Shown here one piece after another: positions 7,133-64,000 of a stretch of DNA of 64,000 bases. The stretch is from positions 1 to 64,000 of the IMG/VR virus record IMGVR_UViG_3300020183_000040; one strand, written 5' to 3'. The number at the start of each line of letters is the position of its first letter. Positions within the stretch are counted from its first letter, which is position 1. The stretch comes from a virus. Position numbers and translations under genes: made by a program. The notes beneath the pieces were generated by a model. It worked only from the letters and a program-made list of their open reading frames with translations, made no database searches and was not told the DNA's origin.

Positions 7133-7140
7133 AATAAATA
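7133..7140 (+). promoter_or_regulatory. T4-type late promoter variant AATAAATA
   Basis: Intergenic, upstream of the gp25/gp6 unit. Confidence 0.55.
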
Positions 7141-41800: not shown

Positions 41801-43134
41801 AGATTCTTGCTGGTGCATTCATGCCAGTTACTGTTTCTCAGAATGGAGCTTACAGTCAAGATCAGAAGTTTGTAACTGTAAGGCACTCAAATCACTGTAT
41901 GCATGATGTGAATAACAATGTTATAATTACTGGAGTTGCATCTGAAGTAGATCCAACATATCTAACAAATGCAATCAGTGCTACAGAAACTTCAATTAGT
42001 GTTGATGATGCCACACTATTCCACAAAATTGTTGATGGCGCAACAATTAGTGCAACAAACCCAGGTTACATAAAGATTAGTACACTTATAGTTGGAGCTG
42101 GCGCCGAAATTCCAGTTGCTGATTCAAATCTATTTGCAACACAAGAAATTATTCCATATTCTGCAATTAGTGCAGATGGTAAGACAATTACTCTTACTAC
42201 TAGAACTCCAGCATCTTCTTCATTCGCAGAAGGATCAATCGTGGAATGTTATAATCTAGATGGAATTCCACTAACAAAAATCAATAAAACTCACACAGAG
42301 ATTAGTTCACCAACTTTAGATACTTATAGACTAAAAGTGGATGCTGTTGCTACTAATGGTATTGTTGGTGGTGGATATGGTGCAACTGCTACTCAAAACG
42401 TACAGTTTGATCTTCTAACACCTCAATTTGCTAAAGTGGCTTTCCCTGAGACTTCTATCAATGCTAGAGCACAAATTATTACTGGAACATCAATTGGTAA
42501 TGGAACTACAGCTGTTGATCAAGAATCTTTTGTAAATGATGGTCAATTCCTAGATCTATCTCTAGATGCTGCAAATTACTTTGACACTCCAAGAATGGTT
42601 GCTTCTAAACTAAATGAAGATGAAGAACTTAGTGGAAATAAATCACTTAGAATGGAACTAACTCTTGATAGTACTAAACCATATTTGACTCCATATATTG
42701 ACTTGGATCGGGCATCTATCATTACAACAATGAATAGAATCAATAATCCTGTCAATAAAGACATTTCATTGAAAGCAACTGGAGATATACACGAAGCAGT
42801 TTATATTACAAAAATTGCTACACTAGCAAATAATTCTGGTGCTATCAAAGTCTTCTTCTCAGCATTCCGCCCAGAAGACACAGAGCTTTTGGTGCTATAT
42901 AGAGTACGTCCAGTGGGAAGCACGGCATCAATCCAACAAATTGATTATAGTTATTTCCCCACTAATCTTTCTTCAATTCCAGGGACAACCAGACTTGAAA
43001 AGTACTTCGATTATTCATATGAAGTACAAGGACTAAAATTTGACCAATATCAAATCAAAGTTGTTATGAGATCACCAGTTCAATGCAAAGTACCAATTCT
43101 TTCTGATTTCAGAGCAATCGCTCTCGCAATCTAA
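35863..43134 (+). CDS. Large virion structural protein, VrlC/DUF4815-like, 2423 aa
   Basis: NLNVTPYYDDFD..KVLFRPGFPIQARELT..QSILQ; SAPGAHRFKI; RLKNGFIVDDF; YDPLAQSF; LFKSQNASTW. Confidence 0.85.
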   Translation: MPQNTNLNVTPYYDDFDKNKNFYKVLFRPGFPIQARELTSAQSILQHQVENIGTHLFKEGAMVIPGQVGYDTSIDCVLLQASFLGSNIELYREQINGIIITGLNNGVKAKVLYSISAEESERGYATLYVKYVQNGGTQSTVRTFENNEQLFTDVDITFGTTLIEAGSPFAQLLPSSSLSVGSAAYIEDGVYFIRGHFVDVKKEYILLNQYDNNPSYRIGLSVTESIVTSEDDESLNDNAAGSSNYSAPGAHRFKISTSLVKKLFDDESDKNFIELLRISNSKIQKFVTRTAYSELEKSMALRTFQTNGNYVTRNFDITVRDQLNDDAKSGINGVYAAGSTTRSGLIASDDYYTAEISPGVAYVNGFQIETITPQFIDFEKPRDTKALQNQIVPFAVGNELTVNSLYGFPNFTGPSVSSAYQVVELRDTPSSTPGVAAGSVIGYARCLSLEHTDLGPNGTYGGDDDIYKMNIFDIQMLTIIRVSANTTISQGSQIIGGTTGARCFIVASQTNATHLQTYQLEGNFSVGEKIFVDGVDKGTITHLHTFEFSDTRTFIGRDESSSIIEFGANIVLDDYLALEGDTFTVSTDNGGQIVGFNTNFAKDLRPGDVLYFNGTDYLTVEKVNPTALNTQGISVIFDYTNQIVRTDAGVGTIAAGTYTSIVRARAQLLGQENNDLFSPMPKKYVKSISDESMTVRRTYDALTVPAGSLTVDLGSNEQFSSIEDENYNLTVLASSNASHPVGSQIRLVTSSGQTTTVGYATFTSNDRTTLTIANLTNITAVKLTATISKNVVNKTLKTLSKMFVLKVNKTIDNKDTQQFGLTYSNLYGTRIEDSDISLGISDAFQLQAVYESLNDNDPVVPSLTISESIFFAPGTFITGKTSNAKGKVISFITSTLVINYIAVSGSFIPGEQITGFDSTGAAVTGLVTDDSNSIIAGSKVVTDDYYIELNQTGFFYNTSKLVRKPGVRPAVRKLLVVFDWLAHSSTGDYFAGQSYTGLSYYDIPFFNQALCLTDFLDFRPSAKNLYSGTGTVGSPASVQCSTLDFRSRLFTSGATITDVPKLDSDFRCDFDFYLPRVDKLFLSSEGGFQIISGKSAEVPEVPEDIQNAMLLSTIRMRPYGFDPEKDVVLTNEDHRRYTMRDIGSLDRRLSTVEYYTSLSLLEADTANTKILDASGKDRLKNGFIVDDFASHDRSDTSNFDYRASLDYAQGHCRAVHYTTNVALEYNASASQNIQQTGPLLTLPYTEEAIVNQPYASRVVNVNPFNVFTFIGRIDLLPSTDDWIDTKREPAKVTQIEGNYEATRKEMNVDQNGFTPIQWNSWQTSWVGEKTTATKTVYQPDWVASDVGKSPAPWVWGGKGLRRINEVDTIQVTTKSTRSGTRSKVVPKIENKSLGDSVIASTVVPWIRSRNVQLFCSRLKPRTRFYAFFDNVNFTNYMVPKIIELVKDTALDSRSNATPFVIGETVVGQTSGCKLVVAAPNDGYNFNPYSDAAMPTSYAATTDFLNINTELMAKTISGNAYGNFQVGEVLIGSSGAKAVVKDRRLVSDRSGEFKSAMWIPNPNVDTNPRWGTGRRTIRLTTSITDSRLEGAVSSSAQTTYTATGILNTIQENILAVRNAEIVVDTVTEEKVELSTREETRQVGWYDPLAQSFIIDKPGGCFVTSFDVFFFSKDKSVPISCQIRAMENGYPTKRILPFSDVTIIPSKVQLSENGSIPTRFTFQAPVYLLSSVEYCFVLLSDSNEYQVWVSRMGDDDVTNNRTISEQPYAGVLFKSQNASTWTADQYEDLKFTCYLAKFNIGAQSKAVFNNTQLALGNKGILNLRNNPIVTLKPDQNLVLSLPNVPYTNGATIRYISGGNIYLGTGTVKSTSELASGTVLTLTNVTGSFTSGARLASSRTTATITVSGNSGAFTVGNVIKNASSTTAEITAFSGTTLTVNYISPGDSGVVFQANDAITEFATIQSTTALNTATISAVTYTGDQILAGAFMPVTVSQNGAYSQDQKFVTVRHSNHCMHDVNNNVIITGVASEVDPTYLTNAISATETSISVDDATLFHKIVDGATISATNPGYIKISTLIVGAGAEIPVADSNLFATQEIIPYSAISADGKTITLTTRTPASSSFAEGSIVECYNLDGIPLTKINKTHTEISSPTLDTYRLKVDAVATNGIVGGGYGATATQNVQFDLLTPQFAKVAFPETSINARAQIITGTSIGNGTTAVDQESFVNDGQFLDLSLDAANYFDTPRMVASKLNEDEELSGNKSLRMELTLDSTKPYLTPYIDLDRASIITTMNRINNPVNKDISLKATGDIHEAVYITKIATLANNSGAIKVFFSAFRPEDTELLVLYRVRPVGSTASIQQIDYSYFPTNLSSIPGTTRLEKYFDYSYEVQGLKFDQYQIKVVMRSPVQCKVPILSDFRAIALAI

Positions 43135-43674: not shown

Positions 43675-46600
43675 ATGGCAAATAGAATCCAACTAAGACG
43701 TGGCGGTTCACAGGAATGGAGAAACGCTAACCCAGTGCTCGCACAGGGTGAAATTGGTATCGACCTAGACTCGGGAAGAATAAAAATTGGTGATGGTACA
43801 ACTGCATGGAACTCTCTTGCATACGAAAGACCTGTAGAGTCCGTTGCTAACACCGCTAACTCCCTAGTACAGAGAGATGCTGATGGAAACTTTGCTGCTG
43901 GTGTTGTCACAGCAACTTTGATTGGTAACGCTTCTACAGCATCTCGTCTAACAAACATTCGTCAATTTCAACTCACACAAGATGTTATTGCCTCAGGTGT
44001 TTTTGACGGATCTGCAAACCTAAACCTTTCAGCACAACTTCAAACAATATCTACGCTTCCCCATTATGATGGGACAACTTCATCTCAAGGTACATATACA
44101 AAACTAGTTGTTGATGCTAAGGGTAGAATTATCAATGCTTCAAGTCCAACAACTATTCAAGCATATGGTTTAGATACTCAAATTGAAGGTACTGGCGCTC
44201 AACCATTTGATAATGACTTGAGGGCTGTTTCTCAACTTACTACTACTGGTATTGCAATTCGTGGTGGTGATGGTCAGTGGACTACAAGAAGTATTCTCTC
44301 AACTGCTGGTCAAATTGTAATAACCAATGGTTCTGGTACTGGTGGTAACCCACAAGTTGACCTTGCAACAACAACAGTAGTAAATGGAAATTACAATACA
44401 GAATCTCTAACATCAGTAAGTGCTGTAGGACCATTAGGAGAACCATTTGGAACTCAGACGGTAAATACGGTAAAATATACTGTCGATAATAGAGGTAGGC
44501 TACAGTCTTCTACCAATGTCCCTATTGCAACAGCAACTGAAGGTAGTAAGTATCCTGCATACGAAGCATCTACTGTATATGCAAGATATGACATCATCGA
44601 AACGGGCAATAATGTTTACCAAGCAATTAGGGCAATCGCTGCGGGCGGTGGTGCTCCTGCTCATACTAGTTCCAGCGATACTGGAGGGTGGAGATATCTC
44701 GCGGCTGCGGCAATCGAACAGAAAGGATTGGCCTCGTTTGCACAGGAGGATTTTGATGTAGATTCAAATGGACATGTTACAATTGCTGCACTTGGTGTAG
44801 ACAATACTCAACTTCAAAATAATAGAATTTCATTTGCTGATGGAACTACAAAAGAAGATTTTGAGCTTGATCAAGAACTAACTGCAAACACGGGATACCG
44901 TGGATTCAACTACCTCAATTATGTAAAAGTAAATGATACTAGTGGTTCTCTTCTCTTTACTGCTAATAATACTGCAAATTCTGGTGCTGGCGGTGTTGAC
45001 ATCAATGTTGATACTAACATCAGTGGCGCCAATATCATTCTTGATCGCCCTGGTACATCTCCTCTCCAAACTATTGAGCGTACTGCAGGGGACCTCAGGA
45101 TCCACCATAACGTCTCTTCTACCGTCAATAGAACTCTTGATATTATCAGCAATAATGCTGGTACTGGTGACGCCACCATCAATATCACTGCTGACAACGA
45201 TGTTGTCATTACCAGTACAACAGGGACCAACTACGTCAAAGTAGAAGATATTTGGTTTAGAGCAAATGCAATAACATCAAATAACTCTACGATTATTATT
45301 GATCCAGTAACTGAAGGCGATAACACTGGTACAGTTCAAATCAAAGGAAATCTACAAATTGATGGCATTACGACCACAGTAAATAGCACTACTGTAACTA
45401 TTGATGATCCAATCATTACACTTGGTGGAGATTCTGTTCCTACTGTTGACGATAATAAAGATCGTGGTGTAGAATTTAGATATTATGATTCACAGGCTCG
45501 TCTAGGATTCTTTGGGTGGGATGATTCTTATGCTACTCTTGCAGGTACTACTGGTGGCTATCGTTTTCTATATGATGCCACAAACGCATCGGAAGTCTTT
45601 TCTGGGACTGATGCTGGTGTCATTGCTGGTAATCTTGCTCTTACCAGTAATGTGGATTCCTCTAGTGCTACTTCTGGCACTCTTGTTGTTACTGGTGGTG
45701 TAGGAATTTCTCAACAACTGAGAGTTGGTGGAAACGCTACAATTTCTGGTAATACTTCAATTTCTGGAACTCTTACAACAACTCTTGATAGTACATTCAA
45801 TAGAAGTGTAACAATTGTCGGTTCTGATACTGCAGCAACAGAACTATTCAAGATTCAAAATGGATCTGCTGTAGACAAATTTACTGTAGATTCTGCAACA
45901 GGTAATACCACGATTCAAGGCACTCTTGGTACTACTGGTGCTACAACACTTAGCTCAACCTTAGGAGTTACTGGTGCAACAACACTTACTGGTAATCTAA
46001 CAACCCAATCCGCATCTACAGTCAATATCCAAAATACTGCCAATAGCAATGTCAATAGTGCTATTGCAGGTACTGCATATGCTTCTCTTGGAACTTATGG
46101 TGCTCTCAAAGTTGATGGCGGAGCTTCAATTGCAAATAGTTTAGTTGTTGGTGGTTCATTCAAAGTATATGGACAGTTCGATGTAGATGGTGCTGTAAGC
46201 TACAGTGGCAACACCGTTTTCAAAGGTAATGTTTCTATCGACAACGATGGTGTATCACCATTCAAGTTCAATATTTCATCAAGCACAGCAAGACTTGATA
46301 GTATTGGACAAATTGTAACTACTAATGCTACCGATTCAACAACAACTTCTACTGGTGCTGTTATTGTAACTGGTGGTGTAGGCATCGGAGCACAACTTAG
46401 AGTTGGTGGTGCAGCAACCATCACTGGTAATACTTCGATAACTGGTGCTCTTGCAGTAACTAGTAATACAACTCTTACTGGAAACTTGGTTGCTAATGGC
46501 TCTGCAACCCTAGGTGATGCAGCTGCAGATACCCTGACGGTAAACGCTACATCGACCTTCAACGCCCCTGTAACGGTCTCCTCGTCACAGGCAACAAGTT

Positions 46601-49600
46601 TGGGTGGCACACTGACTGTAACCGAGCTTACAACCCTGAATAGGGGTCTTACACTGCAAGGTAGTACAACTGCAGCATCCGAGTTCTTCAGGATTACTGA
46701 TGGAGCTGGAACTCCTGTAACTAAATTTCTGGTTGACTCTGCAACAGGTAATACTACTATCGAAGGTTCAGTTGGAATTACTGGTGCAACAACACTTTCA
46801 AGCACTCTATCTGTTACTGATAATGTAACTCTAAACAAAAACGTAACAATCGTTGGTTCTAACACTGCTGCGACAGAACTATTCAAGATTCAAAATGCAT
46901 CTGCTGTAGACAAATTTACTGTAGATTCTTCCTCTGGTAATACAACTATTGCAGGTACTGCAACTATCACCAGTGCAACTCAAATCAATAGCACTCTCGG
47001 TGTGACGGGTGTTACTTCACTGACAAATACAACTGAGCAGACTCTAACTGGAGCAGCTTACACTGCTGATGGTTCTGTTAGACTTACTGGTGGTCTTGGA
47101 GTTGCTAAAAACCTAGCGGTTGCTGGTAGTATGAGAGTCTTTGGAAACTTTGAAATCACTGGTAGTACTACACAGTCTGGTAACACTGGATTCAGTGGTA
47201 GAGTATCCATTTCCAATACTGATGATATTACCACTTTTGGTGATACTACAGTCTCCCTATCTACGACTGGTGGATTTAGAGCAACTAGAAATGCTTATAT
47301 TGGTGGTGATTTTTATGTCTGGGATAATACAAATTCTAGAGTTGCTTTTGGTGTCACTAATTCAACTGGCGCTGTATCAACACATGGTAATCTAACAGTA
47401 GGTGGAAACCTAATCGTAAATGGAACTACAACTACTGTAAACTCAACAACAATTACAGTTGATGATCCAATCATTACTTTGGGTGGAGATACTGCACCTA
47501 CATCTGATGATAATAAAGATCGTGGTGTTGAATTTAGATATTTTGATTCACAGGCTCGTCTAGGATTCTTTGGATTTGATGATTCATCCAATGAATTTAT
47601 TTTCCTAACTGGTGCTACAAATACAAACGAAATTTATTCTGGAACTGACGGAACACTTCGTGCTGGTAGTATTAGAGTTACTGGAGCAAGTGGTACTACT
47701 TTTACTGTAGATAGTAACGCAACAATTACTGGTACAACAACTTCAACCAGATATATTTCAACTACTACTACACTTGCTCCGCTAACTGTAAACTCAACAA
47801 CTAAAGTTACAAACTTGAATGCAGACCTTCTCGATGGTCTAGACACATCATCTTCAGATACAACTGGAAATAGTGTTGTATCAAGATCGTCTGGTAATTT
47901 CAGTGCTAATATTATTACAGTTGCTACTGGTACTGGTGCAGGTGCTGGTATTCAAGGTAATGCTCTTACTGCAGATACTCTCAAGACTGCTCGTACAATT
48001 ACAGTTGCTGGTGTTGTAGATGGATCTGTTTCATTCAATGGATCTTCCAATGTAACAATTACAACTACATTCAACGATGCTGATATCACCGCTCTTGCAG
48101 CGATGGCAGGAACTGGCATTGTCACTAGAACTGCAGCAAATACATATGCTCAGCGTACAATTGTTGCTTCTCCATCTACTGGTTCTGGTATTACTGTAAC
48201 CAATGGTGATGGTGTTTCTGGAAACCCAACGATCAACATCCTATCTTCCGCATCAAACTCTGCAAATAACCTGGTTCTTCGTGGTTCTAGTGGAGAATTT
48301 TCTGCTGGTGCAATTACTGCAACATCTCTCACATCCTCTGGTGCTCTTTCTGTTACTGGCATTACTACTCTCAATGGAGTACTCAATGCTAATGGTGGTA
48401 TTGCTGTTGATGGAACTAGATTTACAGTTGCAGATGCAACTGGTAATACATCGATTGCAGGAACTCTTGGTGTTACTGGTGCCACAACACTCAGTTCAAC
48501 TCTTGGAGTTACTGGTGCTACAACACTCAGTTCAACTCTAGGTGTTACTGGTGCAACCACACTCAGTTCAACCCTAGGGGTCACTGGTGTTACTACTCTC
48601 GCTGGAGTACTCAATGCTAATGGTGGTATTGCTGTTGATGGAACTGCATTTACAGTCGCAGATACAACTGGCAACACTTCTATTACTGGTACTTTAGCAG
48701 TTACTGGAACATCTACATTTACTGGGGCGCTTACAGCAACTGGAGGAGTTGTAGGTAACTCTTCTACGGCAACTACTCTTGCAACAGCAAGAACGATTGC
48801 AATTTCTGGTGATGGCACTGGTACAGCAACATCATTCAACGGATCTGCAAATATTACAATTCCGTTTACACTAGCAACGCAAACTGGTCTTACCGCTGGA
48901 GCTTATACAAAGGTAACAGTAAGCACTAAGGGTCTTGTTACTGCAGCTACACAAGCAGTTACAACTGATATTGCTGAAGGAACTAATCTATATTATACAA
49001 ACGCTCGTGCCGATGCTCGTATTGCACTACAAACTGGTGCAAACCTAGATCTTTCACAAAAGACAACTACTAATCTAACAGAGGGGACTAATCTATACTA
49101 CACGAATGCTCGGGCAGATGCTCGTATTGCATTACAAACTGGTGCGAATCTAAACCTTGCACAAAAGACAACTACTAATCTAGCTGAAGGTACTAATCTA
49201 TATTATACAAACGCTCGTGCTGATGCTCGTGTTGCACTGCAAACTGGCACAAACCTAGATCTTTCACAAAAGACAACTACTAATCTAGCTGAAGGTAATA
49301 ATCTATACTATACACAAGCAAGATTTGACACTGCATTTGGTAATAAAACAACAACAAGTCTAACTGAAGGCACTAACCTATACTATACAGAAGCAAGAGT
49401 ACAAAGTAAACTTGATGACGCATTTGCTCAATTGCAAGCAATGCTGGATAATCTAAGTACATCTACAACACTTATGCTCAATCTATCTGGTGATCCAACT
49501 CCTGGAGTTGTACTAGCTCTCGGAGGACTCATAGATAATGGTGGTGGTGGATTTGTTTCTGCTGGCACTAATGTAGCAACAACCTCTAGTACTGGCACTG

Positions 49601-50169
49601 GTCTTACAGTAAATACTACAGTTTCTGGAGGAGTCATTACTGGTGTTGCAATCAACCAGGCAGGTTCAGGTTACTTGATTGGAGATTTGATCACTATCCA
49701 AAATCCAAACGAAGGTGGTGTTCTTGCATTCGACTTTACAAGCTTTTCCGCAGGTAATGGATATGTAACTGCAACTGGAGTTCCAACTACGCCTACTGGT
49801 GCATCAGCTGGTACTGGATTGACTGTAAACATTACCGCCCTAAACGGAAACGTTACTAACGTGACTATTGCTAACCCAGGCATTGGATATGAACCAGGAG
49901 ATACGATTTTGATCAATCAGGATGGATCTGATCAGGATGCAACTATTGGCATTGCAACTATAATGACAGACGCCAAATTTACACTAGCAGATATTAGAAC
50001 AATGGAAATAGGTGCAACACTTACAGGAGCTACTAGTGGAACTACTGGCATTATTTCAGCACTGGGTGCCGACAACGTGCTTTTGCATTCTGTTGATGGA
50101 TTCTTCAAAATTGGAGAAACTGTTGGCGCTAATGATGTTACAACTCTAACAATCACTTCATTCTCATAA
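43675..50169 (+). CDS. Long tail fibre protein, 2164 aa
   Basis: N-terminal RIQLRRG..W..NPVLAQGEIG..IKIGDG..WNSL (Mtd/hyaluronidase-type N-terminus); GTYTKLVVDAKGRI; Thr/Gly-rich repeats. Confidence 0.85.
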   Translation: MANRIQLRRGGSQEWRNANPVLAQGEIGIDLDSGRIKIGDGTTAWNSLAYERPVESVANTANSLVQRDADGNFAAGVVTATLIGNASTASRLTNIRQFQLTQDVIASGVFDGSANLNLSAQLQTISTLPHYDGTTSSQGTYTKLVVDAKGRIINASSPTTIQAYGLDTQIEGTGAQPFDNDLRAVSQLTTTGIAIRGGDGQWTTRSILSTAGQIVITNGSGTGGNPQVDLATTTVVNGNYNTESLTSVSAVGPLGEPFGTQTVNTVKYTVDNRGRLQSSTNVPIATATEGSKYPAYEASTVYARYDIIETGNNVYQAIRAIAAGGGAPAHTSSSDTGGWRYLAAAAIEQKGLASFAQEDFDVDSNGHVTIAALGVDNTQLQNNRISFADGTTKEDFELDQELTANTGYRGFNYLNYVKVNDTSGSLLFTANNTANSGAGGVDINVDTNISGANIILDRPGTSPLQTIERTAGDLRIHHNVSSTVNRTLDIISNNAGTGDATINITADNDVVITSTTGTNYVKVEDIWFRANAITSNNSTIIIDPVTEGDNTGTVQIKGNLQIDGITTTVNSTTVTIDDPIITLGGDSVPTVDDNKDRGVEFRYYDSQARLGFFGWDDSYATLAGTTGGYRFLYDATNASEVFSGTDAGVIAGNLALTSNVDSSSATSGTLVVTGGVGISQQLRVGGNATISGNTSISGTLTTTLDSTFNRSVTIVGSDTAATELFKIQNGSAVDKFTVDSATGNTTIQGTLGTTGATTLSSTLGVTGATTLTGNLTTQSASTVNIQNTANSNVNSAIAGTAYASLGTYGALKVDGGASIANSLVVGGSFKVYGQFDVDGAVSYSGNTVFKGNVSIDNDGVSPFKFNISSSTARLDSIGQIVTTNATDSTTTSTGAVIVTGGVGIGAQLRVGGAATITGNTSITGALAVTSNTTLTGNLVANGSATLGDAAADTLTVNATSTFNAPVTVSSSQATSLGGTLTVTELTTLNRGLTLQGSTTAASEFFRITDGAGTPVTKFLVDSATGNTTIEGSVGITGATTLSSTLSVTDNVTLNKNVTIVGSNTAATELFKIQNASAVDKFTVDSSSGNTTIAGTATITSATQINSTLGVTGVTSLTNTTEQTLTGAAYTADGSVRLTGGLGVAKNLAVAGSMRVFGNFEITGSTTQSGNTGFSGRVSISNTDDITTFGDTTVSLSTTGGFRATRNAYIGGDFYVWDNTNSRVAFGVTNSTGAVSTHGNLTVGGNLIVNGTTTTVNSTTITVDDPIITLGGDTAPTSDDNKDRGVEFRYFDSQARLGFFGFDDSSNEFIFLTGATNTNEIYSGTDGTLRAGSIRVTGASGTTFTVDSNATITGTTTSTRYISTTTTLAPLTVNSTTKVTNLNADLLDGLDTSSSDTTGNSVVSRSSGNFSANIITVATGTGAGAGIQGNALTADTLKTARTITVAGVVDGSVSFNGSSNVTITTTFNDADITALAAMAGTGIVTRTAANTYAQRTIVASPSTGSGITVTNGDGVSGNPTINILSSASNSANNLVLRGSSGEFSAGAITATSLTSSGALSVTGITTLNGVLNANGGIAVDGTRFTVADATGNTSIAGTLGVTGATTLSSTLGVTGATTLSSTLGVTGATTLSSTLGVTGVTTLAGVLNANGGIAVDGTAFTVADTTGNTSITGTLAVTGTSTFTGALTATGGVVGNSSTATTLATARTIAISGDGTGTATSFNGSANITIPFTLATQTGLTAGAYTKVTVSTKGLVTAATQAVTTDIAEGTNLYYTNARADARIALQTGANLDLSQKTTTNLTEGTNLYYTNARADARIALQTGANLNLAQKTTTNLAEGTNLYYTNARADARVALQTGTNLDLSQKTTTNLAEGNNLYYTQARFDTAFGNKTTTSLTEGTNLYYTEARVQSKLDDAFAQLQAMLDNLSTSTTLMLNLSGDPTPGVVLALGGLIDNGGGGFVSAGTNVATTSSTGTGLTVNTTVSGGVITGVAINQAGSGYLIGDLITIQNPNEGGVLAFDFTSFSAGNGYVTATGVPTTPTGASAGTGLTVNITALNGNVTNVTIANPGIGYEPGDTILINQDGSDQDATIGIATIMTDAKFTLADIRTMEIGATLTGATSGTTGIISALGADNVLLHSVDGFFKIGETVGANDVTTLTITSFS
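48463..48600 (+). repeat. 36-nt tandem repeats (TLGVTGATTLSS)
   Basis: About 4 units visible in DNA and protein. Confidence 0.85.
48961..49400 (+). repeat. 102-nt tandem repeats (TTNLxEGTNLYYTNARADARIALQTGANLDLSQK)
   Basis: Three full units plus two shorter ones. Confidence 0.85.
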
Positions 50170-50173
50170 AAAA

Positions 50174-50974
50174 ATGTCCGCAACTCAACCAGCCTCTAAA
50201 GCAGAATTGAAGGCATATGCCCTAAGAAGATTGGGGTATCCTGCTATCGACATCAATGTATGTGATGAGCAACTAGATGATCTAATTGCAGAAGCAATTA
50301 GTCAATGGCAAGAGTTTCACTACGAAGGCAATTATACTGGTCTTGTTAGAATTCAAGTTACTGAAGCAATAAAGACTGCTGCTCTTCAATCGACTACTAA
50401 TGGCGCTTGGGAAGAATTAGATAATTATATTGAGATGCCCCCAAACACTTTAGGTATCAACCATGTATATACTACTCTAGGACCAAGTAGTGTAGTGCCT
50501 AATAATATTTTCAATATCAAATATCAGATTTTTCTAAATGATATTTACAATTTTACCCATGGTCAGATTCTTCATTATTTTATGACATCTCAATATCTTG
50601 AGACTCTAGACTGGGTAACTAGTTCTTCTCAACATCGAAGAGTGAGATGGACAGTTCATCAAAATAAATTATACCTAGATTTTGATTGGAGAGATCTCCA
50701 AGTTGGTCAATATATTTTAGTTGAAGCTTCATTTGGAGTTGATCCTGAAGTTTATAATAATGCATATAATAACGAATGGCTGAAGGGATATACTGAGGCA
50801 TTGTTCCAACAACAATGGGGGCAAAATCTTAGTAAATACGATGGTATTCAAATGATTGGCGGCGTAACACTCAACGGTCGTCAAATTTTAGAAGATGGTA
50901 GAAATAAAAAAGAATCCCTAATTCAAGATCTTCATAGTAGATACGAATTACCACCTCTTGATCTAATCGGATGA
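50174..50974 (+). CDS. gp13: Neck protein gp13
   Basis: LKAYALRRLGYPAIDINV; QWGQNLSKYDGIQMIGGVTLNG. Confidence 0.92.
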   Translation: MSATQPASKAELKAYALRRLGYPAIDINVCDEQLDDLIAEAISQWQEFHYEGNYTGLVRIQVTEAIKTAALQSTTNGAWEELDNYIEMPPNTLGINHVYTTLGPSSVVPNNIFNIKYQIFLNDIYNFTHGQILHYFMTSQYLETLDWVTSSSQHRRVRWTVHQNKLYLDFDWRDLQVGQYILVEASFGVDPEVYNNAYNNEWLKGYTEALFQQQWGQNLSKYDGIQMIGGVTLNGRQILEDGRNKKESLIQDLHSRYELPPLDLIG

Positions 50975-52140
50975 CTTACTCAAATACTCCACCAAAAAAC
51001 TGTATTCAGTCAGATTATAACAGTACATGTAGGATCAATATAAATGGTTCTGCTCAGGAGCAGACATTTATAGAAAATCTTATAGTTGAGAGTATTGAAA
51101 TTTATGGTCAAGAAATCTATTATATCCCAAGAACTAGAGTAAAAACTGATGACATTCTCAACGAAATTCAAGCAAGTAGTTTCAATTCTGCTTACTCCTG
51201 TAGAGCCTACGTCAATAATGTTGAAGGATGGGAGGGACAAGGCGAATTACTTAGCAAATTTGGAGTACGTATCGAAGATAAAACGACGTTTGTTATTTCC
51301 CGCAAAAAATTTACTCAAAAGGTTGACAACAATGTAGCTCTTGCTGTAGAAGGTAGACCAAATGAAGGAGACCTTATCTGGTTCCCTGTTGCAAAACATT
51401 TGTTTGAAATCAAATTTGTAGAGGCAGAAAGACCATTCTATCAACTTGGTAAAGGATATGTTTGGGAAATGCAATGTGAACTATTTGAATATTCTGATGA
51501 GAAGATTGATACTGGAGTTACTGAAATAGATTCAATTGAAACTGCATTTGCTCATACTATATCACTTATTATGGATCCTGGTGGTATTGGTAACTTCACA
51601 GTTGGAGAAGAGATTGTTGGTGATGAGTTCCTTGCAAAAGCAACAGCAACAATTACTAGCGGCGCTGTAAGTAGCACAACACTCAGCGATGGTGGAGAAC
51701 ACTACAATCCAGCAATCCCACCAGCTGTTACATTCTCAGCACCTCCTTCGCCTGGTACACGAGCTACAGGAACTGCAACAGTATCTGCAAATGGTATTGT
51801 AACTGGTATTACGCTAACCAATCCTGGAAGTGGTTACACGTCTGCTCCTACAGTTACGATTGATTACTCACCAAAAGATAACAGGGCAGAAGTCAAGTCT
51901 TGGAATCCAACAACTCGTGCTCTAGAAGTCATCAATAGAACTGGTACATTCACTACTGCTGAAACAATTACTGGTCTTACATCTAACGCAAAATGGAGTC
52001 CATATTCTTATAACACACTAAATAATACAAACAGTACTTATGATAAGAACTCTGAGTATGAAATTGCCGATGATAGTATCATCGATTTTACAGAAACAAA
52101 TCCTTTTGGAAGTGTTGGATCTACTAGCGGTACATTCTGA
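50971..52140 (+). CDS. gp14: Neck protein gp14, with an inserted beta repeat
   Basis: ESIEIYGQEIYYIPR; LSKFGV; RPNEGDLIWFP; PFYQLGK; DFTETNPFG. Confidence 0.92.
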   Translation: MTYSNTPPKNCIQSDYNSTCRININGSAQEQTFIENLIVESIEIYGQEIYYIPRTRVKTDDILNEIQASSFNSAYSCRAYVNNVEGWEGQGELLSKFGVRIEDKTTFVISRKKFTQKVDNNVALAVEGRPNEGDLIWFPVAKHLFEIKFVEAERPFYQLGKGYVWEMQCELFEYSDEKIDTGVTEIDSIETAFAHTISLIMDPGGIGNFTVGEEIVGDEFLAKATATITSGAVSSTTLSDGGEHYNPAIPPAVTFSAPPSPGTRATGTATVSANGIVTGITLTNPGSGYTSAPTVTIDYSPKDNRAEVKSWNPTTRALEVINRTGTFTTAETITGLTSNAKWSPYSYNTLNNTNSTYDKNSEYEIADDSIIDFTETNPFGSVGSTSGTF

Positions 52141-52973
52141 TGTTAGGAAATTATTTTTATCATTCAATTATTCGTAAAACAGTTGTTGCTTTTGGAACAC
52201 TATTCAACAACATTGAAATTCGTCGTCAAAACGAAGTTATGAAAGTGCCGCTTGCTTATGGACCTACAGATAAGTTTTTGGCAAGATTGAATCAAAATCC
52301 AGATCCTACTAATAAAAGAGTTCAAATTACTCTGCCAAGAATTTCGTTTGAAATGACAAACATTGATTATGATCCTTCTAGAAAAGTAGCACCAACAAAT
52401 AAAATAAAAATTCCAAATGCAGATGATGATTCTAAGACTGCATACATGCCAGTTCCATATAATCTAGAATTTGAATTAGGTATTATTGCAAAATCTCAAG
52501 ATGATTCTTTACAAATCATTGAACAAATTCTCCCATACTTTCAACCACATTTCAATCTCAGTATCAAATTGATTGAGGATATCAATGAGATTCGTGATAT
52601 TCCAATTACACTCAATAATATTAGTTACGAAGATAGTTATGAAGGAGAGTTTGCTACTCGCAGAGCTCTAATTTATACTCTGAAATTTACTGCAAAGACA
52701 TATCTTTATGGTCCTGTTATCGATGCTCCAACTATCAAGAAAGCAATCGTTGATAGTTACACATCTATGGAGCAAATAACTGCTCCTCGTGTCACCAGAT
52801 ATACAGTTACTCCAAAGGCAAAGGTTGATTATAATAACGATGGATCTATAAATGCTTCTGATGATCCATTTACAGATCCAGATGATGATTTTGGATTCAA
52901 CGAATTATTTGCAACGTTCCAAGACAATAAAAAACGTAATCCAGTGACAGGATCTGATGAGGATATCCCATGA
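52140..52973 (+). CDS. gp15: Tail sheath stabiliser/terminator gp15
   Basis: YFYHSIIRKTVVAFGTLFNNI; KVPLAYGP; QIIEQILPYFQP. Confidence 0.93.
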   Translation: MLGNYFYHSIIRKTVVAFGTLFNNIEIRRQNEVMKVPLAYGPTDKFLARLNQNPDPTNKRVQITLPRISFEMTNIDYDPSRKVAPTNKIKIPNADDDSKTAYMPVPYNLEFELGIIAKSQDDSLQIIEQILPYFQPHFNLSIKLIEDINEIRDIPITLNNISYEDSYEGEFATRRALIYTLKFTAKTYLYGPVIDAPTIKKAIVDSYTSMEQITAPRVTRYTVTPKAKVDYNNDGSINASDDPFTDPDDDFGFNELFATFQDNKKRNPVTGSDEDIP

Positions 52974-53398
52974 CTACATTTGATGGACTAAATGATGTGT
53001 TTGGAACAGAACCAACAGAAGTAAAAAAATATGAAGATCAAAAAATGATTGTGAAAAAAAGTGAGCATGTTGATGTTCGCCAAGACTATGAAATCACTCG
53101 TGCTCAACTACATAATCTTGTTATGAAAGGGCAGGAGGCTGTTGATGGGATACTTGATGTAGCGCGGTCATCAGATCATCCTCGTGCTTATGAAGTTGCT
53201 GGTCAACTTATCAAAAGTGTTGGAGATGTAGCTGATAAACTTTTAGATCTTCAGAAAAAAATGAAAGATCTTGATGATGAACCAAAGAAAGGTCCAAGCA
53301 ATGTAACTAATGCCCTGTTTGTCGGTAGCACTGCAGAATTGCAAAAGCTACTAAAACAGCAAAATAGAATAAATAATACAGAACAAGAAGGCGTCTAA
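52970..53398 (+). CDS. gp16: Terminase small subunit gp16
   Basis: DYEITR..L; HPRAYEVAGQLIK; NALFVGSTAELQKLL. Confidence 0.93.
   Translation: MTTFDGLNDVFGTEPTEVKKYEDQKMIVKKSEHVDVRQDYEITRAQLHNLVMKGQEAVDGILDVARSSDHPRAYEVAGQLIKSVGDVADKLLDLQKKMKDLDDEPKKGPSNVTNALFVGSTAELQKLLKQQNRINNTEQEGV
53368..53375 (+). promoter_or_regulatory. Late promoter variant AATAAATA within the end of gp16
   Basis: Ends 25 nt upstream of ATG 53401. Confidence 0.5.
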
Positions 53399-53400
53399 TC

Positions 53401-53676
53401 ATGTCAAGAAGAATTATTGTGCAAAATAGTGAGGTAACTCTCAGTACAGCTACTAATCTAAGTAAGGCAAGATTGGTAAGAGTGTTGAACGATACCGCTG
53501 CAAGCATTGTTCTAACGATTGATGATGCTGCACAGGCAGCTGCTAGAGAAGATTACGATACAAAAGGTTCTAGAACTATTACAGTTGGATCACTAGAAAC
53601 TATCTATCTTGAGAAAGAACCATTGGAAACTATCAGTGGTTCTGGACTAAAATGTACAGCAATTGCAAGACAATGA
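53401..53676 (+). CDS. Hypothetical protein, 91 aa
   Basis: ORF track; ATGA coupling to the next gene. Confidence 0.75.
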   Translation: MSRRIIVQNSEVTLSTATNLSKARLVRVLNDTAASIVLTIDDAAQAAAREDYDTKGSRTITVGSLETIYLEKEPLETISGSGLKCTAIARQ

Positions 53677-54974
53677 AAACATTTTCCGAGTTTATGGCAG
53701 AGGGTAATCCTACCGCTCGTATGCTTCACAAATCAAAAACTCAAGTCACAGGGCACATCTCTGCCGATCGTGGCGATGATGAAAGTGCAAATCGTACAAA
53801 GCGCAAATCACTTGAGAAAGATCTAAAGAAGCATGGTATTGGGCATCAGAAGGGTGTAGGTGAATACAAATATTCTTCTGGTGAGGGCACTGGTAGAGAG
53901 GTTTCCTATCAAACATCTAAACCAGATAAAATGTCTAAGCGTAGATTTGGAAAGGTAATGCGTCGTCTTGGTCGTAAGCATGGTCAAGAATCTGTTATCA
54001 CAAAAGATTCCAACAAACCTGCTAAACTACATTATACTGATAAAGGATCTAAATCAACATCTGACACTATTGGTCATAGTAAATCAGGTAAGCACCCAGA
54101 AGGATATGGGGAAACTTCGGGCACTAAAGTTCGTGGTTCTAAACTTCCTAAGAAAACCACTAAGTCTGCTTATCACTACGAAGAATTTGTTGAAGAGGGA
54201 TTGAGAAAAAGACTTGCTGCTGGTGCATTAGCTGCCGCAGCTGCAGTTGGATCTGGCGGTGCGGCAAAAGCAGGTCATCATCATGGTGAGGTTCATGTTC
54301 GTCATGGTTCTACTCCTGCAACTGCCACTCATCATTCTGTAGCAAGTGCAGTTGATAAGGCACTTGCAAATAAAGATAGTAGTGGTGGAAAGGAGTTTCA
54401 TTCTGCATCTCATGAGAAGGGCAAAACTGGAACAACTGTTCATGGAAAGTATGAGTATTCTGCTTCTGGCGGTTCAGATAATAAAAAAGCAACAGAGGCT
54501 CCTAAACCAAAACGAGGAGAAGATTCTCGTAAACGTGGTAAGCATGATCCGTCAAGGGGGTCAGCGCCAGCAGTTCGTTCTACAACACATAGTCCTGAGC
54601 GAGATCGAGCTCAGCATGGTGATCGGGGCAATGGCAATGGTCATCGGAGCAATGGTAGTGGCGGTGACCGTGGCGGCGGATCAACTTACCGTATGAGCAG
54701 TTATATTCCTTCCTTTGGAGACTTCATGTCGGAAGGAGAAGCTTGGACTAGAAAGGAGGGTCAGAATAAAAATGGTGGTCTCAACGCAGCAGGTCGCGCA
54801 TCTTACGAAAGAGCAAATCCTGGATCTGATCTCAAGGCACCTTCAAAGAAGGTTGGAAATCCCCGCAGGGCGTCATTCTGTGCCAGAATGAAAGGAATGC
54901 GTAAAAGACAAAAGGATAGTAACAACACTGGCGAGGACCGTCTATCGAAATCGCTTCGTGCGTGGAATTGTTGA
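53673..54974 (+). CDS. Probable internal head (poly)protein: capsid-targeting-like N-terminus, SAM-lyase-like domain, His-rich middle, basic C-terminal domain (DUF6321-like)
   Basis: ATG 53673 gives MKTFSEFMAE; ISADR...GEYKY...EVS...QESVI; AWTRKEG..GGLN..GRASY...RRASFCARM...W.C. Confidence 0.65.
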   Translation: MKTFSEFMAEGNPTARMLHKSKTQVTGHISADRGDDESANRTKRKSLEKDLKKHGIGHQKGVGEYKYSSGEGTGREVSYQTSKPDKMSKRRFGKVMRRLGRKHGQESVITKDSNKPAKLHYTDKGSKSTSDTIGHSKSGKHPEGYGETSGTKVRGSKLPKKTTKSAYHYEEFVEEGLRKRLAAGALAAAAAVGSGGAAKAGHHHGEVHVRHGSTPATATHHSVASAVDKALANKDSSGGKEFHSASHEKGKTGTTVHGKYEYSASGGSDNKKATEAPKPKRGEDSRKRGKHDPSRGSAPAVRSTTHSPERDRAQHGDRGNGNGHRSNGSGGDRGGGSTYRMSSYIPSFGDFMSEGEAWTRKEGQNKNGGLNAAGRASYERANPGSDLKAPSKKVGNPRRASFCARMKGMRKRQKDSNNTGEDRLSKSLRAWNC

Positions 54975-55083
54975 TGAGCAATATTTATCAGTAAGTAAAC
55001 ACATACTTATCAAATTAGAACTTATTGTAACAATTTTTTTTGGTAAATAGTAGTATAATTTTGTAGCAACTTGATACTTCCTT

Positions 55084-56353: not shown

Positions 56354-56508
56354 TGAATTATATTGCATTCTTGGTTATTGGATTGGTAGAAATCGGTCCT
56401 AATGTATGTAAAGTTGATTACATGCGTTATGTTGATGTGCAATCCTTTACGATGCCTTGCGATCATATTCAAAAAATTACAAAAGCTCCAGTGGATAGAT
56501 CGATATGA
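56353..56508 (+). CDS. Hypothetical protein, 51 aa (MNYIAFLVIGLVEIGPNVC...)
   Basis: Translated by hand; TAATG and ATGA coupling on either side. Confidence 0.6.
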   Translation: MNYIAFLVIGLVEIGPNVCKVDYMRYVDVQSFTMPCDHIQKITKAPVDRSI

Positions 56509-56909
56509 AAGACCCCTATATCTACAGAATCCGTTCAATTGCAAAGGTGGTAGATGGCGACACTATTGACGCTAACATTGATCTCGGTTTTGATATCTCT
56601 CTCAATAAGCGAATTCGCCTTGCGGGCATTGACACGCCTGAGAGCAGGACAAAAGACGAATACGAAAAGAAACTCGGACTCGAATCGAAAGAGTGGTTGA
56701 AGAAGCATCTGGAGGGATCTAAAGATATTCTTATCAAGACTGAACTTCCAGATAGCACAGAGAAGTATGGTCGTATCATCGGACACTTGTATATCAACGG
56801 TGAAGAAATATCAGTCAATAATAAAATGATCAACGAAGGATACGCCTGGGAATATGACGGTGGTACAAAACAAAAAGATTTTTGGTCTCTTCTAAGTAAA
56901 AGAAAGTGA
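56505..56909 (+). CDS. Thermonuclease (staphylococcal nuclease-like) family protein
   Basis: KVVDGDTID; RIRLAGIDTPE; KYGRIIG; MINEGYA. Confidence 0.9.
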   Translation: MKDPYIYRIRSIAKVVDGDTIDANIDLGFDISLNKRIRLAGIDTPESRTKDEYEKKLGLESKEWLKKHLEGSKDILIKTELPDSTEKYGRIIGHLYINGEEISVNNKMINEGYAWEYDGGTKQKDFWSLLSKRK

Positions 56910-63339: not shown

Positions 63340-63651
63340 ATGTCTAAAAGTGCTAGTGAAATAGTTGATCAAATTTTTTCTGGAGATAAAGTTTCTGCAT
63401 TAGATTCAATTGATAGTGCGTTACAATCTCGGGCATATGACTTGATTCAGCAAACAAAACATGAATTTGCTAAGCAATGGGGTTTTGAACTTGATCAAAC
63501 TGGTCAAGCAGTTGCTGATGAACTTGAAGATACTTTGCCTGATGGTACGGATGCTCCTCAAGATTATGAATTTGATGGTCGAATGCCCCATGAAGCCCCA
63601 GATGATGAAGTAACACCAGAAGAGGAAAACGAAAATGAAACTGATCTCTGA
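63340..63651 (+). CDS. Acidic hypothetical protein between the portal and protease genes (prohead-core position)
   Basis: ORF track; GGAG RBS; CTAAATA upstream; synteny. Confidence 0.7.
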   Translation: MSKSASEIVDQIFSGDKVSALDSIDSALQSRAYDLIQQTKHEFAKQWGFELDQTGQAVADELEDTLPDGTDAPQDYEFDGRMPHEAPDDEVTPEEENENETDL

Positions 63652-64000
63652 GCAAATTGTAGACGTAAAATTTATTGCCGAAGAAGTAGAAGGTAAAAAA
63701 AATTACTTCATCGAAGGTATTTTTCTACAAGGAGAAATCAAGAATCGTAATGGAAGACTGTATCCAATGAGTGTTTTGGATAGAGAAGTTGCTAAATATG
63801 ATGAAAACTTTATCCAGAGTGGTCGCGCCCTTGGCGAACTTGGTCACCCTGATGGTCCATCTTTGAACCTAGATAGAGTTTCACACAAAATTATGCACCT
63901 CAAAAAAGAGGGAACCAACTATGTTGGTAGAGCAAAAATTTTGGCAACTCCCATGGGACAAATTGCAAAGAATCTTCTAGACGAAGGTATCAAACTTGGA
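63635..64000 (+). CDS. gp21: Prohead protease gp21, 5' part (truncated by window end)
   Basis: Translated by hand: MKLISEQ...YFIEGIFLQGEIKNRNGRLYP...RALGELGHPDGP..NLDRVSH...ATPMGQIAK. Confidence 0.92.
   Translation, partial: MKLISEQIVDVKFIAEEVEGKKNYFIEGIFLQGEIKNRNGRLYPMSVLDREVAKYDENFIQSGRALGELGHPDGPSLNLDRVSHKIMHLKKEGTNYVGRAKILATPMGQIAKNLLDEGIKLG

Follow-up and report, generated by a model that had tools for sequence, protein, structure and literature searches.

The ORF and its SAM lyase domain

The stretch of DNA analysed here (hereafter 'the window') comprises positions 1 to 64,000 of the IMG/VR virus record IMGVR_UViG_3300020183_000040, the whole of which is 85,186 bases long with a completeness estimate of 48%. 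Pfam and PHROG matches of neighbouring open reading frames (ORFs), together with DNA and protein searches, identify the window as DNA of a T4-like cyanomyovirus, and these searches returned matches only to Synechococcus, Prochlorococcus and marine phage records. Our subject is a plus-strand ORF at 53673..54974 that codes for a protein of 433 amino acids plus stop, with an isoelectric point (pI) of 10.1, in which a short leader, an S-adenosylmethionine (SAM) lyase module, a basic middle part rich in Gly, Ser, His and Ala, and a DUF6321 module follow one another. The ORF is located in the late gp13-gp20 cluster, between gp16 and gp17. ORFs upstream of it match gp13, gp14, gp15 and gp16, and downstream an endonuclease of the staphylococcal nuclease (SNase) type is followed by matches to gp17, gp18, gp19 and gp20. 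This agrees with the preliminary description of the locus, which had placed the gene within a head and packaging cluster, and the sequence strings quoted there are all present in the translation of 53673..54971.

A protein cluster identical to the 433-residue product holds nine member sequences from three contigs, and a one-off assembly error is thus not the source of the long ORF. Where homologues have a leader at the N terminus, they begin at the Met equivalent to position 53673, and therefore we favour this start over the alternative in-frame ATG at 53652. The feature was originally delimited as 53673..54035, a span (residues 1-121) that does contain the start of the domain, but the domain extends to about residue 173 (nucleotide 54191).

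The SAM lyase fold, which is of the T3 gp0.3 type, occupies residues 24-173 (53742..54191, plus strand), as judged from Pfam, a profile search of PDB, hhalign, AlphaFold, Foldseek and VIA-align. PF23780 (S-AdoMet_lyase) matches residues 29-136 of the protein with an E-value of 3.7e-7 (30.6 bits against a cut-off of 28), and the score is 32.9 bits when residues 1-175 are taken alone. A HMMER scan of 1.84 billion representative sequences yielded 118 relatives at E <= 0.001. Forty-one relatives, mostly shorter and chosen for compactness, were aligned with residues 1-175 to give 42 sequences, the remainder being omitted, and all 42 match PF23780 (best E 3.1e-22). When the resulting profile was compared with PDB, only two distinct sequences were retrieved at E <= 1, namely T3 SAM lyase, also called SAMase (7OCK/8BB1; E 1.6e-4 over 101 profile positions), and Svi3-3 (6ZM9; E 0.011). 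Comparison by hhalign with T3 gp0.3, taken from the T3 genome record, recovered the same register over 96 columns (E 2.2e-4, probability 45%).

The likeness to the T3 enzyme is detectable by profile and fold methods only. A single-sequence phmmer search of PDB with the whole protein retrieved no SAM lyase, and when residues 1-175 were compared with T3 gp0.3 by BLASTP, the match lacked significance (E 0.30) and had the wrong register. Aminomethyltransferase matches from the same phmmer search are at chance level (E about 2) and were rejected. Given that pairwise methods are blind to the relationship and that profile and fold methods are positive, the match to T3 SAMase that was first made by eye represents true remote homology.

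An AlphaFold2 model computed from the alignment has a mean predicted local distance difference test (pLDDT) score of 91.9 and a predicted template modelling (pTM) score of 0.85. The preliminary description had suggested a fold comparison with T3 SAMase and Svi3-3 as a check, and its outcome is favourable: ranks 1-7 of a Foldseek search against PDB are all SAM lyases. With VIA-align, the T3 enzyme is matched at Z 13.8 by model residues 24-171 (root-mean-square deviation 2.9 Å, 126 residues) and at Z 13.6 by residues 24-173 (134 residues), and the match spans T3 chain residues 10-153, which is nearly the whole enzyme. Svi3-3 is matched at Z 8.3 and 7.6, and the top unrelated fold reaches Z 7.0.

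SAM-AMP lyases share this fold as well (9gab at E 0.076 by Foldseek; 9gad at Z 5.5 by VIA-align). The real substrate could be a SAM-derived signal, such as the SAM-AMP of CorA-type type III CRISPR systems (for SAM-AMP signalling see PMC10600005), in which case the protein would be an anti-CRISPR-signalling enzyme. However, the model resembles T3 SAM lyase far more closely (Z 13.8), and SAM-AMP lyase, at Z 5.5, is on a level with unrelated ferredoxin-like folds. The rarity of CRISPR systems in marine picocyanobacteria counts against this alternative too, and we consider it extremely improbable.

The T3 enzyme suggests a different mode of action. In the structural comparison, the top matches are to chains of T3 SAM lyase in complexes with SAM synthetase, covering nearly the full length of gp0.3, and the protein might act chiefly as T3 SAMase does (PMC8406200), through heteropolymers in which the host SAM synthetase (MetK) is bound and inactivated, with cleavage being secondary. 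The identity to T3 is only 13-17%, so the MetK-binding interface is unlikely to be kept, and the host enzyme would be cyanobacterial. We regard this mode of action as very unlikely to be the principal one, and it is in any event compatible with the explanation that we favour below rather than opposed to it.

Published work on Svi3-3 indicates that only Gly56, Glu69 and Gln104 (Svi3-3 numbering) are strictly conserved in active SAM lyases, and that Tyr58, Ser71, Glu105 and Ser106 also contact the substrate (Guo et al. 2021, PMC7877911). In the present protein, Svi3-3 residues G56, Y58, E69, S71, Q104, E105 and S106 correspond to G63, Y65, E76, S78, Q105, E106 and S107. E76 and Q105 are the sole invariant columns in the 42-sequence alignment. 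Among the homologue rows, the active-site positions hold Gly in 196 of 201, Tyr in 190 of 198, Glu in 182 of 200 and Ser in 180 of 203, followed by Gln in 207 of 209, Glu or Asp in 207 of 209 and Ser in 198 of 209. The T3-SAMase-like domain is thus borne out by Pfam, the PDB profile search, the fold and the active-site residues. We judge it very probably a genuine SAM lyase domain, and cleavage of SAM by the module is predicted from these residues.

The same conservation bears on the possibility that the product functions chiefly as a basic protein of the head interior or of scaffold type, in DNA charge neutralisation or core building, and that it retains a fold derived from SAM lyases, with SAM bound and not cleaved, or with its binding site unused. 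Such a function would suit a chain in which all three modules have a pI of 10-10.8 and long low-complexity linkers occur, and whose polyprotein-like build includes, in the family, other small basic domains (DUF3008 and DUF6321); T4 internal proteins are likewise basic (PMC8442874). Yet the residues by which Svi3-3 binds or orients SAM are retained without exception and rank among the family's best-conserved columns, which would be unexpected for a mere filler protein. We therefore assign a purely structural role little probability.

The leader motif, its repeats and the virion proteins of relatives

The leader, MKTFSEFMAE, forms residues 1-10 (53673..53702, plus strand) and resembles a capsid targeting sequence (CTS), with a putative cut by a gp21-type protease after Glu10. 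It is identical at 7 of 10 positions to the T4 CTS, MKTYQEFIAE (PMC8442874), in which, according to a review, residues 4 and 7 are the main determinants of targeting and residues 8 and 10 those of processing (PMC9026906). Conservation was counted over the 168 homologue rows that span the leader. Position 4 is Phe, Tyr or Trp in 166 rows and position 7 in 167, position 8 is Leu, Ile, Met or Val in 166, and Glu occupies position 10 in 167. Gly follows at position 11 in 151 of the 168, and positions 5, 6 and 9 are freely variable. The CTS-like leader named in the preliminary description is therefore well founded at each of the positions that are critical in T4.

Leaders of the same kind head unrelated proteins, among them a cytidylyltransferase, a kinase, DUF6321 proteins and small proteins. 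At the DNA level, a pattern that requires T or S at leader position 3 gave three forward matches in P-SSM2 and none in S-SSM5, P-SSM4 or S-CREM2; the motif is internal in S-SSM5 and P-SSM4, and position 3 is Asp or Asn in S-CREM2. A relaxed protein pattern produced many chance matches in the contig and is uninformative alone. In P-SSM2, PSSM2_114 is a stand-alone SAM lyase of 169 amino acids that begins MRTFQEFLQLCE, and the gene directly after it, PSSM2_115, codes for an unrelated protein of 86 amino acids that begins MKSFKQFLEE. The cytidylyltransferase of this phage, PSSM2_194, begins MKSFSQFLTE. By analogy with the ip genes of T4, these three look like a small set of tagged genes. Other close homologues of the window protein occur in P-SSM4 (PSSM4_093), S-SSM5 (107), P-TIM40 and S-TIM4.

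The motif is not confined to the N terminus of the protein. We scanned all six frames of the 85-kb contig with the motif [FYW]x[EDQ][FY][ILMV]x(1-3)E and obtained five matches, three of which are in the SAM lyase ORF at module borders; the remaining two fall in frames of just 69 and 85 codons from stop to stop, which we take to be non-genic. The first, FSEFMAE followed by Gly, covers residues 4-10. The second CTS-like, or cut-site-like, motif is YEEFVEE (residues 169-175; 54177..54197, plus strand), which precedes G176 and coincides exactly with the end of stand-alone homologues (...AYHY-stop). The third, FGDFMSE (residues 348-354; 54714..54734, plus strand), precedes G355 and stands directly before the DUF6321 module. 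That the motif recurs twice more at module borders suggests a polyprotein cut by a gp21-type protease.

Between the second motif and G355 lies the basic, low-complexity middle part (residues 176-354; 54198..54734, plus strand; pI 10.1), in which a Pfam scan found no family. It includes an Ala/Gly-rich hydrophobic stretch, LAAGALAAAAAVGSGGAA, at residues 182-199 (54216-54269). A distant relative, P0192, combines a lyase domain with weak matches to Gly-zipper Pfam families, and these sequence matches hint at membrane contact.

The C-terminal DUF6321 module (54735..54971, plus strand) consists of residues 355-433, and thus of 79 amino acids with a pI of 10.75. PF19846 (DUF6321) matches residues 364-431 at E 4.5e-21 (75.7 bits against a cut-off of 28.5), and a search of PDB with a DUF6321 profile gave no relatives at E <= 1. 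This domain is widespread in cyanophages, with 3147 short proteins at E <= 0.001 among 3152 candidates, and the term 'DUF6321' was not found in the literature searched. Some relatives have the lyase and DUF6321 fused directly, as in ...AYHYE|SAAW... (P0002) and ...AYHYGE|SASW... (P0025). Among 120 listed short DUF6321 proteins, 13 have a partial leader start (10 with MK[TS]F and 3 with KTF from residue 2), in which Leu or Arg occurs where the strict pattern calls for Phe or Tyr at position 7 and for a hydrophobic residue at position 8. By eye, Glu followed by Gly, Ala or Ser stands just ahead of the AAWTKK start of DUF6321 in nearly all printed rows, and two or three positions before that Glu there is usually a hydrophobic residue. 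DUF6321 on its own may be small basic head cargo. Cutting at the three motifs would yield pieces with predicted pI values of 10.0, 10.1 and 10.8.

A candidate for the protease is encoded by the same phage. The gene for a gp21-type prohead protease (Peptidase_S77) starts within the window at 63635..64000 on the plus strand and continues past its end to contig position 64279; PF03420 matches contig positions 63656-64135 at E 4.2e-35. The protein starts MKLISEQIVDVKFIAEE, and its N terminus holds ...KFIAEE..., in which FIAE equals the last four residues of the T4 tag. For T4 gp21 itself, LIE ending at residue 9 has been given as a candidate autocleavage site (PMC9026906).

Evidence from virions is available for relatives. 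The protein gp6 of the T4-like cyanophage S-CREM2 is homologous to the window protein (33% identity over residues 1-169, E 2e-8; PF23780 at E 2.3e-19) and begins MKDFDSFLEE. It was detected in purified S-CREM2 virions with 19 unique peptides, and the authors propose that gp6 enters the host alongside the DNA and blunts restriction (PMC10665884). A SAM hydrolase carried by the virions of a T4-like cyanophage has thus been in the literature since 2023. Our literature search found no paper linking cyanophage cargo, or a virion SAM lyase, to the T4 tag.

We scanned the whole S-CREM2 genome in six frames with the pattern [KR]x[FYLW]xx[FY][ILMV]x[ED]. The 11 matches comprise 4 that are N-terminal in annotated coding sequences (CDSs), 2 that are internal and 5 in unannotated frames. 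The four CDSs with an N-terminal leader are gp6 (SAM lyase), gp13 (small), gp14 (kinase) and gp154 (cytidylyltransferase), and all four are among the 52 virion proteins identified for 219 CDSs (hypergeometric P 0.003). The Cas9-like virion protein gp12 has RFASFMAE at residues 18-25, and the non-virion neighbours gp5, gp7 and gp8 have no leader-type start.

Cluster-level marks are found in a spreadsheet of Sullivan et al. 2010 (PMC3037559), where T4-GC119, the DUF6321 cluster, is marked YES under 'Existence of Proteomic Data?', as is T4-GC190, the cytidylyltransferase cluster that includes the P-SSM2 copy. By analogy with these relatives, we infer that the window protein could be packaged in the virion, cut after ...FMAE and injected.

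An alternative is that the SAM lyase acts late and unpackaged in the cytoplasm of the producing cell, where it might keep progeny DNA from being methylated or deprive abortive or defence systems of the SAM on which they depend. The 'leader' would then be a conserved first helix of this enzyme subfamily. Several observations weigh against head targeting, and many of these favour the cytoplasmic alternative. Only 23 of the 168 rows have the motif at the N terminus; in the other 145 it is internal, behind 60-600 residues, so it could be a conserved part of the domain. The leader and domain of the preliminary description are real, but they are parts of a three-module protein of 433 residues whose family mostly carries the motif inside the chain. 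In the internal cases it mostly marks the start of a C-terminal lyase domain in basic proteins of 400-760 residues, some of which begin with a DUF3008-like segment that scores below threshold (19.8 bits against a cut-off of 24). Over the same 168 rows, several positions just after the leader are about equally conserved, and E10 and R16 are near-invariant along with the domain. Svi3-3 can be aligned by VIA-align from model residue 6-7 onwards, and therefore the first helices may have a structural counterpart.

The virion data carry their own reservations. The S-CREM2 authors caution that abundant proteins may co-purify with virions (PMC10665884). Our leader count in that phage is partly post hoc, in that Leu at position 4 was admitted after gp13 had been inspected; when only Phe, Tyr or Trp is allowed at this position, 3 of 3 remain and P is about 0.013 (hand arithmetic). 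The SAM-lyase cluster, T4-GC110, is without a proteomic entry in the spreadsheet of Sullivan et al. 2010 (PMC3037559), and no member of this cluster occurs in S-PM2, Syn9 or S-SM1, the three cyanophages whose virions were analysed there. In addition, a D12-class N6-adenine (Dam-type) methylase is encoded on the same contig, beyond the window, at 82309-83208 (E 6e-28), and a SAM-dependent enzyme of the phage's own sits awkwardly with strong SAM depletion. The Dam gene of S-CREM2 is two genes away from the gp6 lyase gene.

Other observations are at odds with an unpackaged enzyme. The same leader is carried by unrelated proteins, it tracks virion detection in S-CREM2 in four of four cases, and the homologue gp6 is itself present in virions. 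Residues 1-10 are modelled with low confidence (mean pLDDT 62, versus 88-97 over residues 11-170), and the structural match to T3 SAM lyase begins only at residue 24. Moreover, the phage's own Dam methylase would suffer under a bulk loss of SAM late in infection. On these grounds we consider the cytoplasmic alternative unlikely.

Genomic setting and predicted timing

The stop codon of a plus-strand ORF at 53401..53676 overlaps the ATG of the SAM lyase ORF (ATGA), and this overlap suggests that the two are co-transcribed and translationally coupled. The upstream product of 91 amino acids matches phrog_19805, a family without an assigned function, at E 4.5e-8, and has no match in a Pfam scan. 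At the equivalent position, S-SSM5 and P-SSM4 have a protein of 177 amino acids (T4-GC403).

A late-promoter-like motif, AATAAATA, is located at 53368..53375 on the plus strand, 25 nucleotides before the ATG of the 53401 ORF and 297 nucleotides before that of the SAM lyase. The published consensus for cyanomyovirus late promoters is NATAAATA (PMC2984593). In the window, ATAAATA is depleted, with 10 occurrences where about 22 would be expected; of these 10, 9 lie on the coding strand. These sites are at 7134, 29500, 34295, 43633, 53369, 55910, 58592, 60932 and 61632 on the plus strand and at 54982 on the minus strand. Where the comparison was made, ATAAATA is found a few tens of bases ahead of ORF starts (43675, 53401, 55919, 58638, 60960 and 61662), a placement that would be expected of NATAAATA late promoters. 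Among relatives, S-CREM2 gp6 has ATAAATA 22 nucleotides upstream, and P-SSM2 has none directly before PSSM2_114. The exact T4 late promoter, TATAAATA, was also considered and set aside, as its five matches, all on the plus strand, correspond to the chance count and none is near the gene. Scans for sigma-70 promoters and terminators gave chance-level results only.

The genes from 43675 to 54974 form a gap-free run. Together with the late-type motifs, this late gene run makes late expression of the SAM lyase gene likely, as far as timing can be read from sequence. Deployment as an early gene in the manner of T3 does not fit a gene that lies inside a late cluster behind AATAAATA. The preliminary description had drawn the same contrast, and in the T3 record SAMase is indeed the first early gene, behind E. 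coli promoters.

Other features of the region deserve brief mention. Ahead of gp13 there are two giant ORFs, at 35863-43134 (2423 amino acids) and 43675-50169 (2164 amino acids), the second of which has TATAAATA 36 nucleotides upstream; at this place, relatives have a protein annotated as structural, for example as a YadA-domain protein. The SNase-type endonuclease between gp16 and gp17 is encoded at 56505-56909 (E 4.6e-17). The gp16-gp17 region has been described as hypervariable in cyanomyoviruses.

A candidate head-borne enzyme and its relation to known systems

With these caveats, we lean slightly towards a model in which the protein is a SAM lyase cargo that is loaded into the head and processed by the prohead protease. 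The gene would be transcribed late, together with the neck and packaging genes. Its N-terminal leader would draw the protein into the core of the assembling prohead, in the same way as that of T4 IPI-III. A T4-type motif, of the form aromatic-x-x-aromatic-hydrophobic-x-Glu with Gly next, stands ahead of every module, and the gp21-type protease of the phage would cut after Glu10, Glu175 and Glu354. The predicted products are a SAM lyase of ~165 residues, a basic linker piece and a DUF6321 peptide of 79 residues. These pieces would be retained in the filled head and delivered with the DNA into the next host. There, ahead of phage gene expression, the lyase would convert SAM to methylthioadenosine and homoserine lactone, and SAM-dependent host defences, such as type I and type III restriction-modification and BREX-like systems, would be starved.

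A more specific version of this model holds that cyanomyoviruses retain T4's tag-and-cut system for head cargo and that the tag is used three times in one chain, which would make the product a head-loaded polyprotein whose lyase stays latent until it is cut inside the head. SAM lyases have their active sites between the subunits of a homotrimer. The precursor lyase would be latent because it is unable to form a trimer, and latency until cutting would account for such an enzyme being affordable to a phage that also encodes a Dam methylase. Once injected, the pre-made lyase would deplete SAM before phage transcription begins. We offer this version tentatively and consider it doubtful. More generally, one may speculate that either a small injected dose or latency until cutting would fit the co-occurrence of lyase and Dam methylase.

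Head delivery would matter for the order of events in infection. Known phage SAM lyases are made after DNA entry, when restriction may already have struck, and a lyase carried in the head, if real, would be active from the first second of infection. If the T4 tag works in cyanophages, a simple sequence rule would predict which 'non-structural' enzymes occur in the particles of ocean phages, among them SAM lyase, NMNAT-like cytidylyltransferase and kinase, and would explain why such enzymes are found repeatedly in virion proteomes. Functions would also follow for two widespread 'hypothetical' clusters, T4-GC110 and T4-GC119. These considerations are relevant to how abundant marine phages overcome host defences.

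Among characterised enzymes, the closest is T3 gp0.3 SAM lyase (7OCK, 8BB1), another PF23780 member, which has the same fold across nearly its whole length (Z 13.8 and 13.6) and shares the motif register, with ISADRG here and VSAFRS in T3, then GxY, E and Q-[ED]-[SC]. The two differ in that identity is 13-17%, with no significant BLASTP match, and in that the T3 gene comes first among the early genes, downstream of E. coli promoters, whereas the window gene is in a late structural cluster. The T3 enzyme also lacks the CTS-like leader, the extra N-terminal helices and the fused modules. Svi3-3 (6ZM9, 6ZNB), from environmental phage DNA, is matched at all of its named SAM-binding and SAM-orienting residues (Z 8.3, 7.6). 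However, its fold and sequence matches are weaker than those of T3, and it is a stand-alone enzyme that is not known to associate with virions.

In deployment, S-CREM2 gp6, annotated as 'S-adenosyl-L-methionine hydrolase (virion protein)', is a homologue with an N-terminal leader that belongs to a T4-like cyanophage and has a late-type motif upstream. Unlike the window gene, it is on the opposite strand among DNA-metabolism genes, beside a Dam methylase and a restriction endonuclease and outside the neck and packaging cluster. Its C-terminal half differs and lacks DUF6321. Within the sections of the S-CREM2 paper that were searched, no connection with the T4 tag was found (PMC10665884).

The internal proteins of T4 (IPI, IPII and IPIII), along with Alt, share with the window protein a ten-residue leader having the same critical positions and Glu at position 10, and they too are basic and come from a phage that encodes a gp21-type protease; their genes are late, as the window gene probably is. 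Packaging and cutting have been demonstrated for T4 and are predicted for the window protein, and in most relatives of the latter the motif is internal. Its cargo is an enzyme of another family, and three motifs occur in one chain, suggesting a polyprotein. Thus, by family the protein is a member of the T3/Svi3-3 SAM lyases, and by deployment it resembles the internal proteins of T4.

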